Shown: positions 9,196 to 36,768 of the stretch, piece by piece
Layout of the letters: every line of letters starts with the position of its first letter
How positions within the stretch are numbered: the stretch's first letter is position 1
Notes under the pieces: model-generated
The model's input: only the letters and a program-made list of their open reading frames with translations
Told to the model about the DNA's origin: nothing
Database searches by the model: none
Origin: Candidatus Portnoybacteria bacterium RBG_19FT_COMBO_36_7
Lineage (GTDB): Bacteria > Patescibacteriota > Minisyncoccia > Portnoybacterales > GWB1-42-6
Length of the DNA: 64,000 bases
Direction of reading: 5' to 3'
Assembly (NCBI GenBank): GCA_001819495.1
Contig: MHMW01000021.1
Span: forward strand, 10,706 to 74,705
Translations under genes and position numbers: made by a program

Positions 9196-9662
9196 ATAAT
9201 CTCTTTAAGCTGTCTCGGAGAGGGCTTTTTGGTTTACCTTTGTTAAATCCCGCAAAGCGGGAGCTGCAAAGCAGCTATTTAACAGGGTGACTACTCTCGT
9301 CAACCGACATTTTAGGTCTTGCCTGACCCACTCCGACCCAAGGTCGGAGCAATCGACACTACTTCCTCTTATATTAAAAAATATAAGAAAGGAGGTGATC
9401 CATCCACAGCTTCCGCTACGGATGCCTTGTTACGACTTCGTCCCTGTCACCGAGCCTACCTTGAAACCAATAAATTGGCGCTTCCGGTATTCCCGGCTTC
9501 CTTGACGTGACGGGCGGTGAGTACAAGACTTGAGAACGTATTCACCGCGCCATGGCTGATGCGCGATTACTAGCGATTCCGGCTTCATGAGGTCGGGTTG
9601 CAGACCTCAATCCGAACTGGGACCGGCTTTGATGGGATTAGCTCCATGTTACCATTTCGCTT

Positions 9663-9693
<31 letters not shown>

Positions 9694-10332
9694 AGCCCAG
9701 GTCATCAAAGGATCACGCTGATTTGACGTCATCCCCGCCTTCCTCCCCATTGTCTGAGGCAGTCTGCTGCGACACTTGTAACGCAGCATAAGGGTTGCGC
9801 TCGTTTCCTCACTTAAGAGAACAGCTCACGCCACGAGCTGACGACAACCGTGCAATACCTGACCCATCTGTCCTTGTGAGACATCGGCTGTTTCCAGCAG
9901 ACTTCAGATGGATGTCTAGACCTGGTAAGGTTCCTCGCTTGTCGTCGAATTGAACCACATGCTCCACCGCTTGTGCAAGTCCCCGTCTATTTCTTTGAGT
10001 TTTAGCCTTGCGGCCGTACTTCCCAGGCGGCAAACTTAACGCGTTAGCTTCGCCACCTGAAGGGTCGATACTTCAAATGGCTAGTTTGCATAGTTTAGGG
10101 CGTGGACTACAAGGGTATCTAATCCTTTTTGCTCCCCACGCTTTCGTCTCTCAGGGTCAGAGTAGCGCTAGCTGAATGCCTTCGCTTTTGGTGTTCCCTA
10201 CGATATCAACGGATTTCACCCCTACACCGTAGGTTCCATCAGCCTCTCGCACTCTCTAGTTTTGACGTTTCTTGCGCGGCGTTGGAGTTGAGCCCCAACA
10301 TTTAACACAAGACTATCAAAACCCCCTACAGA

Positions 10333-10363
<31 letters not shown>

Positions 10364-10454
10364 TGGGGTACTCGTCTTACCGCTCCTGCTGGCACGAGTT
10401 TAGGAACCCCTTATTCTTAGGGTACGCTCATTACGCTCCTCGCTTTCGCTCGTC

Positions 10455-10600
10455 GCTCAAATTAAAATTTTAAAGTTAAAAGTGTGAAATCATTGTATCG
10501 CTACGCAATGATTTATATATAATCATCCCGCGAAGCGGGGCACCTTAATTTTTAACTTTTCATTTTCCATTTTTAACTTAGCTCCGAACGTAAGTGAGGA
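10455..10600 (-). repeat. Insertion (~150 nt) in the V3 hairpin of 16S, built from the genome-wide AT-rich repeat family (aaagttaaaa / aatttttaac arms) around a GC palindrome
   Basis: Flanking 16S sequence aligns to E. coli ~430-500. The inserted segment is caaattaaaattttaaagttaaaagtgtgaaatc - core with cccgcgaagcgggg - ccttaatttttaacttttcattttccatttttaactt. The arms are inverted repeats. Confidence 0.5.
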
Positions 10601-10989
10601 GCGCATTGCTCCCCTATAAAAGAGTTTTACACCCCGAAGGGCTTCTTCACTCACGCGGCGTCGCTCGATCACGCTTTCGCGCATTGTCGAAGATTCTCGA
10701 CTGCAGCCTCCCGTAGGAGTCCGGACAGTTTCTCAGTTCCGATGTTGGGGGCCGACCTCTCAGTCCCCCTACCCGTCATCGCCTTGGTGGGCCGTTACCT
10801 CACCAACTAGCTGATAGGACGCAGGCCTCTCCTGAAGCAACCCTTGCGGGTCTTTAAATGAGAATGACATAAGTCCCCTCATTACTATCTTGTATTAGTC
10901 CCGATTTCTCGGGATTATTCAAAACTTCAGGGTAAGTTACCTACGCGTTACTAACCCGTTTGCCACTACCGCTCGTGCTTCGCTATCGC

Positions 10990-11045
10990 TCATCACTCGC
11001 TCAAATTAAAAGTTTAAATTTTCATTTTTAATTTTTAACTTAAGT
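10990..11045 (-). repeat. Insertion (~55 nt) in the V1 hairpin of 16S from the same AT-rich repeat family
   Basis: caaattaaaagtttaaattttcatttttaatttttaactt lies between CAAGTCGAACG...GCACAAAC and the GAGCGGTAGTGGCAAACGGGT region. Confidence 0.4.
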
Positions 11046-11726
11046 TTGTGCTGAACATAGTGAAGCACAAACGATCGTTCGACTTGCATGCCCGTATCCA
11101 CGCCGCCAGCGTTCATCCTGAGCTAGAATCAAACTCTCATTGTAAATGTTAGAACTAAAATTGCTGAATCGATCTTCGACCGTCCCACAAAATGCGGGGC
11201 AGTAAAGCGACTCAACACCTCTAGAATCCAACAAGTTTTTTCGAGACAACTTAAAAAGATTATCTCATCTCGCCGAAGCTCCGAATGGAGCATAGGCGGA
11301 TTAGCTCAAAAAAAATCTGGTTTATCCCGTTACATCCGCCAAAAAGACGGAAGTATTTATTACATCCCTTATAGTAGGATGCAATGGGATTTATTTAACC
11401 TTACTTTTTGTCTGTATTTTGTTGTTAAAGTTCAATCAAGTTTATCCATTTATACCCTCTTTCGCCCTGCAGGCTACGGACGGGTTATTCTCTTACGAGA
11501 ATAAAAAATACAACTAGTCAGACCTCTTAACTAATATTTAATTAAGAACCCCTCAAGTTGTATTTTCTAACTAACAAACTGATAACTGACAAACTGATTT
11601 TTTTTAATGGGTTCTTCTACATAGGCGTATTTTTCCTTTCCGCCCCGCAACTGCAGGGCTCTATGCAATGTCTATTTTACTCCTCTCAGTTAGCTTGTCA
11701 AGTGCTTAAATTTTACTTATCAAAAA

Positions 11727-12011
11727 CTACGATTTTTTATTATTTCTTTTATATTTTATATAGATAATTACGACTGCAATTCCAAAAATTAATGGGACTA
11801 AAAATAGAATATCAATCATACAACTACTCGAGCAATAGCCCCAAAAACCGTATGAATACATTTCTATAAACAACAATATTATGAAAACAACTAAACCAGA
11901 TAATAATCCAAATAGAATTCCAATTAAATTTTTCATTATATAGAGTACGTCTATTACAATGCCTTTGCCACATATTCTGTCATTTCTGCCAAGCGACACG
12001 CATAACCCCAT
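11727..12011 (-). CDS. Small hydrophobic protein (2 TM helices). The probable true start is at the internal MKNLIGILFG; the listed N-terminus is an out-of-frame read of a gap 3'-end remnant
   Basis: Hydrophobic segments GILFGLLSGLVVFIILLF and ILFLVPLIFGIAVVIIYI. The first 17 codons overlap the gap-fragment copy. Confidence 0.3.
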   Translation of the reverse strand: MGLCVSLGRNDRICGKGIVIDVLYIMKNLIGILFGLLSGLVVFIILLFIEMYSYGFWGYCSSSCMIDILFLVPLIFGIAVVIIYIKYKRNNKKS

Positions 12012-12030
12012 TCATTATCATACCAAGCCA
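11954..12030 (-). other. Degenerate duplicate (copy C) of the gap gene 3' end, encoding LAWYDNEWGYACRLAEMTEYVAKAL*
   Basis: Reverse complement ttggcttggtatgataatgaatggggttatgcgtgtcgcttggcagaaatg... matches the real gap C-terminus (WYDNEWGYACRLAEMTDFVANSF*) at protein level, with many synonymous differences. Confidence 0.55.
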
Positions 12031-12037
12031 AAATATA

Positions 12038-12331
12038 TTATTTATGCCGCACGCCGACTTTCTTTTCCAAAACATCAACACGTTTTTGTAATTCAACCAG
12101 CTCAAAACGATACGCGACGTTATGTAATCGCAACATAATTGCTTCGTGCTCACGCGCATTCGTTTCTCCTATGCTCTTTATTTCTTTTTTCAATCCTTTC
12201 TCTATTCCTTCAATTTTCTCTCCCGTTTCATCAAAACCGTTTTTAACCATAACGGCCAAATCATTCATTGTAATTTTCTTATTCGCTTTTTTCATGCCTT
12301 TATTATATTTATTGTCAAATTTTTGAGACAT
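12038..12331 (-). CDS. Hypothetical coiled-coil protein (~97 aa). Its start codon lies inside gap-fragment copy B
   Basis: MSQKFDNKYNKGMKKANKK ... AIMLRLHNVAYRFELVELQKRVDVLEKKV. No recognisable family. Confidence 0.35.
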   Translation of the reverse strand: MSQKFDNKYNKGMKKANKKITMNDLAVMVKNGFDETGEKIEGIEKGLKKEIKSIGETNAREHEAIMLRLHNVAYRFELVELQKRVDVLEKKVGVRHK

Positions 12332-12380
12332 ACTCCGCCATTTCAGCCAGCCGACACGCGTAGCCCACATTCGTATCGCT
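12315..12380 (-). other. Degenerate duplicate (copy B) of the gap 3' end, encoding ...DTNVGYACRLAEMAEYVSKI*
   Basis: ggctacgcgtgtcggctggctgaaatggcggagtatgtctcaaaaatttga; GYACRLAEM is conserved with different codons. It is preceded by two hairpins (gagcacat..atgtgctc; caagaaacc..ggtttcttg). Confidence 0.5.
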
Positions 12381-12535
12381 CCTCACGGCAGAGCTCCCAA
12401 GAAACCATCGGTTTCTTGCGCTCCCGAGCACATAAAACGTCATGTGCTCGGTCGCTGATTTCCTCCGCGGGGAAACACCCAGTTTCCTCATCCCCCTTCT
12501 GATGAATGGGGCCCGGCTGAAAGGACTTAAATTTA

Positions 12536-13546
12536 TTAGAAAGAATTAGCCACAAAGTCGGTCATCTCAGCTAATCTACACGCATAACCCCACTCATTAT
12601 CATACCAGGCCAAGACCTTGACCAAGGTTTCATCCATCACCATCGTGTAATTTGCGTCAACGATGGAAGAATAGGTATTGCCTTTGTAATCTATAGAAAC
12701 CAGAGGTGCGTCTTCGATGCCCAGAATACCATCCAGTTCCTTTGTCTGAGACATTTTTTTGAATGTCATATTTATTTCTTCAGCCGAGGTCGGGGTTTTG
12801 ACAACGCAGACAAAATCGGTAATCGAAACGACCGGTGTCGGCACTCTTAGCGAAATTCCATCCAGTTTTCCCTCAAGCTCGGGTATTGTTTTTGTGACGG
12901 CAGTAGCCGCGCCGGTGGTTGTCGGAATAATGGAAAGTGCGGCGGCACGGGCTCTTCGCAGATCCTTATGCGGCAAATCCAGAAGGCGCTGGTCGTTGGT
13001 ATAGCTGTGAGCAGTGGTCATAAAACCGTGCAAAATCTTGAATTTATCGTTCAAAACCTTGACCACCGGGGCCAGGCAATTGGTGGTACAAGATGCCATT
13101 GATATAATATCGTCTTTTTCTGAATCGTACTTTTCTTCGTTCACGCCGAGAACATATGTCTGGATTTCCCTGCTTTTTGTCGGCGCGGAAATTATCACTT
13201 TTTTGGCGCCGGCCTCAAGATGTTTTTTGGCACCTTCATATTCTGTAAAAACCCCAGAACATTCAAGCACGATATCAACGCCCATTTCTTTCCAGGGCAA
13301 GCGAGCGGGCTCTTTTTCTGCCAGTATTTTAATTTTTTTGCCGCCAATTTCCAATCCCCCGTCTTTTCCTTTAACGATTTTATCATAAACCCCATACATG
13401 GAATCATACTTTAACAAATGAGCTAAAGTTGGCGCATCGGTCAAGTCATTGATAGCCACAATTTCCAATCCAGGAAAATGGCTTAAAATTCGCTTTAATG
13501 TTGGACGCCCTATTCTCCCAAATCCATTTATAGCTATTTTGGTCAT
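12536..13546 (-). CDS. gap: Type I glyceraldehyde-3-phosphate dehydrogenase
   Basis: MTKIAINGFGRIGR, ASCTTNCLAP, WYDNEWGY. Full-length, 336 aa. Confidence 0.9.
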   Translation of the reverse strand: MTKIAINGFGRIGRPTLKRILSHFPGLEIVAINDLTDAPTLAHLLKYDSMYGVYDKIVKGKDGGLEIGGKKIKILAEKEPARLPWKEMGVDIVLECSGVFTEYEGAKKHLEAGAKKVIISAPTKSREIQTYVLGVNEEKYDSEKDDIISMASCTTNCLAPVVKVLNDKFKILHGFMTTAHSYTNDQRLLDLPHKDLRRARAAALSIIPTTTGAATAVTKTIPELEGKLDGISLRVPTPVVSITDFVCVVKTPTSAEEINMTFKKMSQTKELDGILGIEDAPLVSIDYKGNTYSSIVDANYTMVMDETLVKVLAWYDNEWGYACRLAEMTDFVANSF

Positions 13547-13659
13547 ATCTTTTTGGCCGGACTACTTGCCCCGTACAGAGCCGCCAGGAGGCGGATCTGG
13601 TTCGGGGTGCGGCCGAAACCGTTAATGGCAATTTTAGGCATAAGTGTCTATTTACTATT

Positions 13660-35110: not shown

Positions 35111-35443
35111 TTATGCCTGTAAGAAGCTTGCCACCAATTCCCAGATTCCAAAGGCCAATATCGCAACGCCAACACCCACCAAGCCGTAAATGAAAGCTCT
35201 TTTAGCTTTTCCGATTTTTTCCTCATCTCCCGCAGCAGTCATATAAAGAAATGCGGCATAAAGTATTACGAAAATACCTACTATAAAGATAATCGCAGCA
35301 AACCATGTTAAAATGGTATTTAACAAATCTAGAATTCCCCCTCTGGTCAAAGTAACACTCGGTAACGTGCCTGTCTGAGCCAAAGCAACTGCCGGCAGAA
35401 TTTGAGCTGCCAAAATCGCTCCCAGATATTTAATTTTTCTCAT
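35111..35443 (-). CDS. TrbC/VirB2-like pilin paralog 1 (signal peptide plus two TM helices)
   Basis: Signal peptide MRKIKYLGAILAAQILPAVALAQ; conserved LYAAFLYMTAAGDEEKIGKAKRAFIYGLVGVGVAI. Confidence 0.5.
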   Translation of the reverse strand: MRKIKYLGAILAAQILPAVALAQTGTLPSVTLTRGGILDLLNTILTWFAAIIFIVGIFVILYAAFLYMTAAGDEEKIGKAKRAFIYGLVGVGVAILAFGIWELVASFLQA

Positions 35444-35522
35444 TTTCTATCTCACCTCCTTTCAAATAAAAATTTTAATACTAATATTTATCAATTGGTA
35501 AAATTGCGATGTTTTTTTATCG

Positions 35523-35864
35523 TCAAGTCAGCAAGCTCTCAACCGCGTCCCAAATTCCATAAGCAAGCATGGCGACAATAATACCGACAATACCATAAAT
35601 AAAGGTTTTTTTAGCTTTCTCAATTCTGCTGTCGTCCCCTCCTGATGTCATGTATAAAAATGCGGCGTAAAGAATACAGGCAATACCTAGTATAAAAATA
35701 ATTTGGGCAAACCATGTTTTAATCTGATCAAATAACTCAACAAGTCTATCTGCCGTTAAATCAATCTGCGGCGGCTCATTGCCTTGGGCTGAAGCAATCA
35801 CGGGCAGCATTAGAATCGTTATGACAGAAATTATTAATAAATATCTTAAAATTTTTTTCTTCAT
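35523..35864 (-). CDS. TrbC/VirB2-like pilin paralog 2
   Basis: LYAAFLYMTSGGDDSRIEKAKKTFIYGIVGIIVAM. Confidence 0.5.
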   Translation of the reverse strand: MKKKILRYLLIISVITILMLPVIASAQGNEPPQIDLTADRLVELFDQIKTWFAQIIFILGIACILYAAFLYMTSGGDDSRIEKAKKTFIYGIVGIIVAMLAYGIWDAVESLLT

Positions 35865-35899
35865 ATGTTTATTGTTTCCTTCTTATTATTTATTATTTT

Positions 35900-36313
35900 T
35901 TAGTTTACCTCTAAAATACTTTTAATTAAAGTGATGAAACCGGCGCCAATCACAATTATCGCCACTCCGACAATCGTATAAGTGATGGCTTTTTTGGCTT
36001 TTTTAATCTTTTCTTCATCGCCGCCGGAAGTCAAAAAGAGAAATCCGGCGTATAAAACCATAATGGCTGCCAAAGGAACCATAATTTTATAAAACCATTC
36101 GGCTATCTTTTTGACTAAACCCTCAAAAGAATCAGTGTTTATGGGATTAGGAATTTCATATTTTCCCGTGCTACCTTGCTGCGCTAAAATAGGCTGCATA
36201 ATTAGTGCGCAGCCAAGTAGAGATAGAAATAATATTATAAAAATTTTTATCGATTTATTCAAATTCATAAAAATTAAATTTTTAATTTTTATCCGCTGCA
36301 TGTAAACTTCCAC
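35900..36313 (-). CDS. TrbC/VirB2-like pilin paralog 3
   Basis: LYAGFLFLTSGGDEEKIKKAKKAITYTIVGVAIIV. Confidence 0.5.
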   Translation of the reverse strand: MEVYMQRIKIKNLIFMNLNKSIKIFIILFLSLLGCALIMQPILAQQGSTGKYEIPNPINTDSFEGLVKKIAEWFYKIMVPLAAIMVLYAGFLFLTSGGDEEKIKKAKKAITYTIVGVAIIVIGAGFITLIKSILEVN

Positions 36314-36768
36314 CAGCTCTGGGGATTAAAGTCCCCGACGCTTTTGCCGATAACCTGAATGATGCTGTTGACAATCAGCCATGAAGCAAAAACAAAAATC
36401 AAGCCGATTACAACATTAATAAATATCTTTTTTGCCTGGGTAACCCTTTCCTCGGATCCGCCCGAAGTAAGAAAAATTGCTCCGGCAAAAACAATCAGAA
36501 GCCCGGCCACCGGCGGCGCCAGTCTGAAGGCAATAAAAGCGAAAATGTTTACGACAAGCGAGAAAAAAGCGCAAAGGTCGCATCCCTTATCGCCACATAC
36601 CGGCACAATCCGACAATTGGTGGTTAATTTAGTCATTACATCTTTGCATTCCGGCGTCTGGGCGTTTGCTAAAGAAGGATATAAAAATAATGAAAATCCG
36701 ATGATCAATAACAATGGCAATATTATAATAATTTTTTTCTTCATTAAGGTCTGCCTCATGAATTTCAA
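36289..36768 (-). CDS. TrbC/VirB2-like pilin paralog 4 with an extra Cys-rich insertion (7 Cys). The probable start is MKKKIIIIL at 36744
   Basis: VFAGAIFLTSGGSEERVTQAKKIFINVVIGLIFV plus TPECKDVMTKLTTNCRIVPVCGDKGCDLCAF. Confidence 0.45.
   Translation of the reverse strand: MKFMRQTLMKKKIIIILPLLLIIGFSLFLYPSLANAQTPECKDVMTKLTTNCRIVPVCGDKGCDLCAFFSLVVNIFAFIAFRLAPPVAGLLIVFAGAIFLTSGGSEERVTQAKKIFINVVIGLIFVFASWLIVNSIIQVIGKSVGDFNPQSWWKFTCSG

Follow-up and report, generated by a model that had tools for sequence, protein, structure and literature searches.

The 64,000-nucleotide stretch of contig MHMW01000021.1 of Candidatus Portnoybacteria bacterium RBG_19FT_COMBO_36_7 that was analyzed here (hereafter, the window, or WIN in pairwise comparisons) encodes, on the minus strand, type I glyceraldehyde-3-phosphate dehydrogenase (GAPDH; gap, 12536-13546, 336 aa, with full matches to the Pfam domains Gp_dh_N and Gp_dh_C) and, downstream of it, 16S rRNA (9388-11144). 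Between these two genes lies a variable stack in which displaced copies of the 3' coding end of gap alternate with a small hairpin element, denoted E2, and with small open reading frames (ORFs). Reading downstream from gap, and with all features on the minus strand, the stack consists of the gap end in use (tail A, 12536-12613), the E2 unit (12381-12535), a displaced gap tail of a short type (copy B, ~12311-12380), an ORF for a coiled-coil protein (ORF-CC, 12038-12295), a second displaced tail, of a long type (copy C, ~11953-12034), and, 3' of copy C, a 69-aa ORF with two transmembrane segments (11727-11936). The right-hand border of the stack is a conserved pre-16S leader of ~560 nt (11145-11702, minus strand), which is present in all relatives at 70-83% identity and opens with a promoter-like site, TTGACA-16-TAAAAT, at 11701-11674 (11/12 in the promoter scan). 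Throughout, L-numbers denote gap loci or contigs of relatives, and P-numbers denote database proteins.

The three gap tails form a family of in-register repeats, D1, located at 12534-12613 (the copy in use), 12310-12389 (60% identity) and 11952-12031 (81%), with spacings of 224 and 358 nt, the extra copies lying 224 and 582 nt downstream. Tail A comprises the last ~78 nt of gap and encodes a C-terminus, TDFVANSF, that is atypical compared to the ...EY(I/V)xKxL of relatives; its stop codon is followed by the 3' flank AATAAATTTAAGTCC. Copy B encodes (DTNV)GYACRLAEMAEYVSKI, and copy C, the oldest displaced tail, encodes LAWYDNEWGYACRLAEMTEYVAKAL, each followed by a stop codon, with the reading frame of copy C still intact. 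When gap was compared to the window using tblastn, copy C was retrieved with an E-value of 4e-10 (ILAWYDNEWGYACRLAEMTEYVAKA) and copy B with an E-value of 0.015 (DTNVGYACRLAEMAEYVS), and an nhmmer profile built from true gap ends detected them with E-values of 4e-20 and 3.5e-09, respectively. The repeats and both searches agree with a preliminary description of this DNA, which had placed two extra gap 3' ends downstream of the gene, with respect to coordinates, spacing and peptides. The core YTGGCGGAGATGRCGGRGTAT is kept in all gap tail copies, including those of 30 nt, and the repeats are gene tails without inverted-repeat symmetry. A tblastn-type six-frame self-comparison of every ORF of at least 90 aa with the whole window yielded no displaced ends of any other gene, and the 80 gap loci compared from other phyla all lack extra gap ends. 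A GAPDH protein scan of genome contigs, in which universal motifs dominate and the best match is only 60% identical, was used as the negative background.

The tails encode the same peptide with different codons, as had been pointed out in the preliminary description, and comparison of their synonymous sites, which was suggested there, gave an almost purely synonymous result. Within the window, tail A differs from copy B by 7 synonymous and no non-synonymous changes, and from copy C by 7 synonymous and 1 non-synonymous (18 codons, amino acids identical), and copies B and C differ by 5 synonymous and no non-synonymous changes. In L086, the tail in use and copy B differ by 8 synonymous and 1 non-synonymous changes, and the copies B of the window and L086, both of them displaced, differ by 8 and 0. 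The synonymous excess compared to random substitution is significant for each of these five pairs (P <=2e-4) and for all pairs tested (P <=3e-3). Of the 52 mismatches among the tails, 38 fall in codon position 3, with all four bases involved and no adenine specificity, and copy C differs from every true gap end only synonymously. In L085, L086 and L218, the C copies are older and have decayed, with 2-4 amino-acid or stop changes (the stop in L086); unlike these, the displaced copies of the window show no such decay. A stranded copy that drifts neutrally is expected to change mainly non-synonymously, so that the synonymous pattern of the window copies points to working ends of diverged alleles until recently. 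Judging from the codons, the displaced tails most likely are former working ends of such alleles and not local duplicates that later drifted, which is in line with the earlier suggestion that they are not recent in-situ duplicates.

The relatives that were compared, with GAPDH 82-91% identical to that of the window, share the gene neighborhood, namely, NiFe hydrogenase, HypA, a radical SAM protein, thioredoxin reductase (TrxR, encoded by trxB), glutaredoxin (Grx), gap, a variable interval and 16S rRNA. The interval from the gap stop to the pre-16S leader spans 1.06-3.1 kb and is different in every lineage. Extra gap tails are always located between gap and the 16S promoter, in 0-3 copies: none in L081-83 and L090; one in L085 and L218; one in L088, L100, L111 and L201, where it is a 47-nt relic located 6 nt past the stop; two in L086 and L087; and three, of ~30 nt each, in L084. 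A metagenome scan with the tail core retrieved, among the matches listed, mostly unrelated genes encoding LMAEMAEY; the relevant matches were L100, L111, L201 and L208. The slot of the 69-aa ORF is filled by a different small membrane ORF in each relative, and the L088 counterpart shows no significant similarity to that of the window. The preliminary description proposed a search of relatives for an empty site, in which gap would be followed directly by the 16S promoter; tail-free loci do exist, but other genes intervene, and the direct arrangement was seen in no relative.

These arrays recur in independent assemblies (that of L086 is the same in L087 and L208, and that of L088 is the same in L100/L111/L201), and the ORF that runs from copy B into the neighboring gene is also present in NCBI, ENA, Logan and SRA-derived records. 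An assembly artefact, one of the caveats attached to the preliminary description, is thus excluded. The other caveat, an identical triplication in relatives that would point to an old 3' untranslated region (UTR), does not apply either, given that the arrays differ in number, content and sequence. The window, L085, L086 and L218 have the same junction at which ...VGVRHK and its stop codon are followed, after about 10 nt, by copy C.

Comparison of the loci resolves the stack into units of different age. In relatives, the older unit consists of a short gap tail (AEYIxK followed by a stop), a sigma-70-like promoter, a 58-aa zinc-ribbon ORF (ORF-Zn), the overlapping ORF-CC and the displaced long tail, copy C; in the window, the promoter and ORF-Zn, which lie 5' of ORF-CC, are deleted. 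The short tail always adjoins the promoter/ORF-Zn/ORF-CC unit, being the working gap end in L085 and displaced as copy B in L086 and the window. The newer unit, made up of a long tail, a flank of ~35 nt and the GC-rich E2, separates copy B from gap both in L086 and in the window, so that L086 corresponds to L085 with one additional unit (tail and E2). The displaced C copies carry the long tail that is seen at the working ends of L082, L088 and L090, where there is no C copy. These tail classes, short beside ORF-Zn and ORF-CC and long in the C copies, fit the order of events in which the newest inserted unit is nearest to gap. The end used originally would then have been tail C, with the original membrane ORF and then the 16S promoter downstream of it; the older unit would have supplied the short tail B and the coiled-coil ORF (along with the promoter and the zinc-ribbon ORF in relatives); copy B would have been the gap end in use before the arrival of E2; and the newest unit would comprise tail A, its 3' flank and E2. 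The length of homology that is carried varies by unit (about 33, 47, 60 and 78 nt).

The cargo of the older cassette, ORF-CC, encodes an 85-aa coiled-coil protein with 83 homologues, all of the Patescibacteria type, in which the start MKNANKKITMNDLA and the motif RLDNVAYRFELVELQKRV are conserved. The homologues begin with MK(N/K)ANKKITMNDLA, which corresponds to position 12295 of the window, downstream of copy B. Hence, the earlier statement that the start codons of the small ORFs lie inside the gap fragments holds only for the longest version of this ORF. The 97-aa version, which is identical to OGZ33930.1, and a 110-aa version are products of read-through from the copy B scar. When the cassette ORFs were screened against Pfam and PADLOC, nothing above threshold was found for ORF-CC or any other.

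The E2 unit (155 nt) includes ~35 nt of gap 3' flank and a GC-rich structured element with a core at 12383-12500. The core contains two similar hairpins, GGGGAAAC-TGGGT-GTTTCCCC and AAGAAACC-GATG-GGTTTCTT, as well as a lineage-specific inner hairpin. The spacer folds better than shuffled sequences (z = -3.35), and 7 of the 28 stem pairs are compensatory among the three sequences compared. No Rfam family was detected in E2 (12381-12535) or in the hairpin upstream of gap that is described below (13547-13608), whether at gathering thresholds or at E <=5; the GIR1 and miRNA hits obtained with Rfam are located elsewhere and were dismissed as chance matches. A protein-coding role for E2 was rejected because the window and L082 differ at all codon positions in this element (by-eye count) and the stems contain compensatory changes. 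For the same reasons, the 58-aa (12315-12491) and 70-aa (12343-12555) ORFs that run across E2 on the minus strand are likely mis-annotations, that is, by-products of the scars, as likely is the 110-aa ORF that starts from copy B. Derivation of the GC-rich spacers from an older, GC-rich gap was rejected as well, given that, outside the tails, the peptides they would encode do not resemble GAPDH.

E2 is not confined to gap. A module map identified an E2 homologue in L082 (4468-4659; also in L081) that is 80% identical and is located directly 3' of the TrxR stop codon. L082 has no extra gap tails; there, E2 precedes a second copy of the TrxR tail, in the layout ...AGMGAKAALGAYNYLKNR, stop codon, 27 nt, E2, GMGAKAALGAYNYLKNK, stop codon. 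The in-use and displaced TrxR tails differ by 6 synonymous and no non-synonymous changes over 17 codons. Compared to the working tail of L088, the nearest relative, the displaced tail is identical at 26 of 30 positions and the tail in use at 20 of 30; the displaced tail being the closest to L088, the native end appears to have been displaced and the end attached to E2 imported. A spurious 57-aa protein, P0204, is called in public databases across the E2 of L082.

Because gene callers predict small ORFs in E2, a peptide read across the E2 core was used as the probe for protein databases. This search yielded a further trxB case (P0205), a diverged E2 with the TrxR tail of a second divergent lineage, similar to L211 (P0210), an ORF in which the 3' portion of E2 is joined to the end of a third gene (P0206, ...DVAEKKDIINAMSYEELIKFLKKKDEKEN followed by a stop codon), and an E2 core in yet another context (P0212). 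The gene that owns the P0206 tail was not found among the sequences compared. Two profile-search hits, P0207 and P0213, were rejected as low-complexity repeats, and the cluster member P0217 as unrelated. The right end of E2 is the same in three gene contexts, and the duplicated gene end that flanks it is 56-60 nt long. No transposase was detected in the window (in this and the subsequent searches of the window for enzymes, ORFs of at least 140 aa were judged by eye), and inspection of the gap and trxB tails by eye revealed no common recombinase core. Thus, E2 is a family of small non-autonomous mobile elements tied to displaced gene ends at several genes. As E2 acts at other genes without an enzyme of its own, the target appears to be set by the carried gene fragment and not by a gap-specific recombinase site.

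A counterpart of the displaced tails, which the preliminary description missed, is present at the 5' end of gap. This 5' unit (13547-13641, minus strand) consists of a copy of the gap start, denoted pseudo-start (ATGCCTAAAATTGCCATTAACGGTTTCGGCCGC, encoding MPKIAINGFGR, 13609-13641), and a 62-nt GC-rich hairpin spacer (13547-13608). The pseudo-start consists of 11 codons with GC-rich usage and lies immediately upstream of the true gap start; it opens a pseudo-ORF of 32 codons, the TGA stop of which overlaps the ATG of gap (ATGA) in both the window and L211, an arrangement that may provide for translational coupling. The 5' unit is common to the window, L084 (4915-5000) and L211-213 (L211 2332-2417), that is, to three divergent lineages, and its hairpin includes 13 pairs, 3 of them compensatory. 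Between the window and L211, the pseudo-starts match at 28 of 33 positions and the true starts at 23 of 33 (by-eye count), and the true gap start of the window hardly differs from that of L082 or L088, both of which lack the 5' unit. From these alignments, the true start would be native, so that the imported gene fragment would lie 5' of the structured element and native sequence 3' of it. With the same polarity, a gene entered at its 3' end would come to use the imported tail, and in a gene entered at its 5' end the imported start would become a dead upstream mini-ORF.

Two side observations concern gene starts and the region upstream of gap. In L214, where an SNase-like ORF adjoins a remote ORF-CC homologue, the initial 13 codons of the former (MKLKKKLTINIVK) have a second copy located 1.7 kb upstream (53-91 and 1750-1788), which may be another displaced gene start. 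In two relatives, glutaredoxin and gap are separated by inserted type IV pilin-like (N_methyl) genes (L084 3788-4873 and L085 4409-4960), so the 5' side of gap is variable as well.

We put at about an even chance the explanation that the stack was built by serial insertions that entered gap at its 3' coding end and each time replaced that end with a substitute tail. An inserted unit would consist of a tail from another allele, entering near WYDNEW/GYAC and continuing through the stop codon, and then of cargo; the imported tail would keep gap intact, and the tail used previously would be stranded downstream. The unit could be copied, guided by homology, from an allele that bears the insertion into an empty one, the gene body serving as the left arm and the displaced tail with the downstream flank as the right arm. 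Such copying might be triggered by a nuclease that acts in trans and cuts the native tail, in which case synonymous recoding would protect the imported tail, or it might require RecA alone, following DNA uptake. Recombination between the direct tail repeats would remove units, which would explain the relatives with fewer copies or none. With respect to E2 and, perhaps, the 5' unit, we tentatively entertain the possibility, which we hold to be somewhat short of even, that they represent a new class of miniature end-replacing mobile elements in Patescibacteria. Such an element would be a hairpin module of ~110-150 nt that is always accompanied by a recoded gene fragment on its 5' side, enters the coding ends of essential genes without damaging them, leaves the native end as a scar, has its target set by the carried fragment, and is moved by a nuclease, a reverse transcriptase or recombination after DNA uptake.

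Several points weigh against serial end replacement. Neither the window nor any cassette yielded a nuclease or a recombinase that could be the active agent, and this scenario does not account for the way in which E2 gained the tail of a new gene. The E2 structure is based on three sequences, and the test of native versus imported tails at trxB involves 30 nt (4 versus 10 differences), which is not significant alone. By its gap gene, the window is nearest to L082 and L088, but these lack the cassettes that the window shares with the more distant L085 and L086; this mismatch implies that the cassettes either spread laterally or were lost repeatedly. Both are compatible with the data, although copy C, which is intact in the window and decayed at the other loci, points to a later lateral acquisition. 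Finally, the three 30-nt copies of L084 (6677-8010) are more similar to one another than to the gap end, and each precedes a small membrane ORF, two of which, ORF160 and ORF89, share a paralogous C-terminus, so that some growth of arrays apparently occurred by local duplication and not by import.

The preliminary description interpreted the stack as the outcome of serial site-specific integration at the 3' end of gap. Serial insertions that carry a replacement end fit the data; a gap-specific site does not, given that E2 also occurs at trxB and at a third gene. The most elaborate version of this interpretation, accretion similar to that of cis-mobilizable elements (CIMEs), posits that small circles, the attP of which contains the gene 3' end, become integrated through the action of a tyrosine or serine recombinase from another locus, giving rise to integrase-less, att-flanked units that can be mobilized in trans. 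This is an unlikely explanation, in our estimate, even though much of the anatomy conforms to it: direct repeats of the gene end flank each unit, gap is restored to full length, the units are stacked, a single core, YTGGCGGAGATGRCGGRGTAT, is found in all gap copies, the constant right end of E2 resembles a true element terminus, and the two short palindromes of E2 are candidate protein-binding sites. Moreover, CIMEs and tandem accretion at gene 3' ends are documented (PMC5704250; PMC7192596). However, no integrase was found in the 64 kb, in the cassettes or at the loci of relatives, and the absence of a recombinase from the stack, already noted in the preliminary description, extends to transposases and homing endonucleases, in the window as well as in the cassettes. 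E2 is found at gap (WIN and L086), at trxB (L082, P0205 and P0210) and at another gene (P0206) with no evident common core, and the variable length of the carried homology does not fit a fixed site. Viral contigs contained no match to the tail core, to the E2 cores, to the 5' unit or to ORF-CC, and a search of a phage collection was likewise negative; thus, no carrier of the core, E2 or the cargo is represented in the viral and phage records searched.

The stack might also have arisen by purely local events, that is, tandem duplication, replication slippage around hairpins or decay of whole gap genes duplicated in tandem, with subsequent drift and unequal crossing-over and no import. The near-identical 30-nt copies in front of the membrane ORFs of L084, two of which have paralogous C-termini, could well have formed in this manner, as could the loci of the L088 type, where two tails are located 6 nt apart with no cargo, and strong hairpins could provoke template switching. 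For the window, we regard such an origin as distinctly improbable. Drift predicts mostly non-synonymous changes, whereas the window pairs are near-purely synonymous; at trxB, it is the displaced tail, not the one in use, that is more similar to the sister lineage, which is the opposite of what drift would produce; the same E2 is found at the junctions of different genes; and the pseudo-start is better conserved across distant lineages than the true starts.

Still less probable, and in our view very hard to sustain, is the possibility that the repeats are processing or regulatory sites in a functional 3' UTR or leader of the gap-16S region that are kept by selection. The conserved hairpins with some compensatory pairs are compatible with this possibility, and so are the RLAEMAEY core, which varies less among the copies than synonymous sites vary among the true ends, and the ATGA overlap of the pseudo-ORF with the gap start in the window and L211, a hint of translational coupling. 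Yet, close relatives lack the copies, with L082 and L090 implying loss without effect; the copies decay in several lineages, down to the stop codon in the C copy of L086; E2 resides behind unrelated genes and belongs to no Rfam family; and the number and content of the copies vary in every lineage. A diversity-generating retroelement (DGR), which the succession of a gene 3'-end repeat and a GC-rich hairpin superficially resembles in its layout of variable repeat, initiation of mutagenic homing site and template repeat (VR/IMH/TR), and an assembly artefact have virtually no chance of being correct and are refuted, respectively, by mismatches that involve all four bases and are not adenine-specific, along with the lack of a reverse transcriptase in the window, and by junctions that are reproduced in at least four independent datasets. 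To our knowledge, GAPDH and TrxR are not targets of the DGR type.

One of the closest parallels to serial end replacement is the mobile ORF (mORF) of fungal mitochondria, in which a foreign C-terminus is inserted, the native one is displaced, the differences are mostly synonymous, and the native end is closest to that of the sister taxon (PMC3630166). The mORFs of Allomyces macrogynus (atp6) and Glomus (atp6, atp9, cox2 and nad3) share with the gap stack the in-frame foreign C-terminus, the displaced native end and the synonymous differences, as well as insertion polymorphism among close relatives (0-3 copies here). The mORF units, however, carry an ORF for a LAGLIDADG or GIY-YIG endonuclease, whereas the units described here carry a 110-150-nt hairpin element or small anonymous ORFs with no nuclease match. 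No homing endonuclease was found between the tail ends, and GIY-YIG ORFs occur only in or next to the neighboring 16S rRNA gene of L082 and L085. In addition, the present case is bacterial and chromosomal, the units are stacked up to three deep, and there is a counterpart at the 5' end.

Integrative elements, including enzyme-less CIMEs, likewise preserve the target gene and accrete in tandem (PMC5704250; PMC7192596). ICESt1 and ICESt3 at fda, together with CIMEs, match the gap stack in having direct repeats of the gene end, a preserved gene and stacks that include recombinase-less units; they differ in that they span kilobases and have one att core and a cognate integrase, compared to units of 0.06-0.6 kb, E2 at three or more genes, and no integrase or free form found. 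Among integrons, cassettes are similarly short, in the same orientation, mostly promoterless and confined to single ORFs with a recurring site, but that site is a palindromic attC, accompanied by intI and attI, whereas the recurring site here is the tail of a housekeeping gene and neither intI nor attI nor any other integrase was found in the window.

The arrays of staphylococcal cassette chromosome (SCC) and pseudo-SCC elements at rlmH are a further example of integrative stacks at a gene 3' end. Miniature inverted-repeat transposable elements (MITEs), palindrome-associated elements derived from IS200/IS605, and the REP/BIME repeats are, like E2, small, GC-rich, multi-locus and non-coding, with two related hairpins. 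We know of no such hairpin element that is associated with a recoded gene end of 30-80 nt, as opposed to no target duplication or one of a few bases. E2 is flanked by 56-60 nt of duplicated gene end, and no TnpA, TnpB or RAYT was seen in the window. Within this spectrum, the stack would be a miniature, multi-target, enzyme-less variant of the known end-replacing insertions.

Patescibacteria have tiny genomes with very few recognizable mobile elements, and yet cassettes have been repeatedly gained and lost inside the essential glycolytic gene gap, with the gene itself never lost. Should E2 prove to be self-propagating, gene ends and small ORFs would be exchanged laterally among these bacteria without the signature of a transposase or an integrase, the displaced tails would be datable scars and a marker for recombination among uncultured lineages, and the phenomenon would be a bacterial counterpart of the mitochondrial mORFs. 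In addition, gene callers turn the scars into spurious proteins, such as the 110-aa and 58-aa ORFs of the window and, in public databases, the 57-aa P0204 and the 46-aa P0206.

Several observations at the flanks of the stack are of separate interest. The 16S rRNA gene of the window spans 1,757 nt, compared to the 1,533-nt model, and so contains insertions. The 16S rRNA genes of relatives are associated with a group I intron and GIY-YIG-type ORFs (L082 8803-9054 and 9728-10271; L085 7475-7768 and 8146-8430), so homing nucleases operate beside the gap stack. In L090 and L218, a PaaX_M/Cas2-like ORF of 175-193 aa is located 3' of gap; it was rejected as evidence of a nuclease, being a probable regulator. 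This ORF is bracketed by palindromic hairpin repeats of ~40 nt (CCTCGTATTRCTCACGATCGTAAKTAATACGAGG; about 1417-1460 and 2108-2145 in L218, and in the interval after gap in L090), which look like a second kind of cassette border. Elsewhere in the window (35111-36768, minus strand), three paralogous small membrane ORFs with the motif ...LTSGG(D/S)EE(K/R)...AKK... are arranged in tandem and may represent a pilin-like family.

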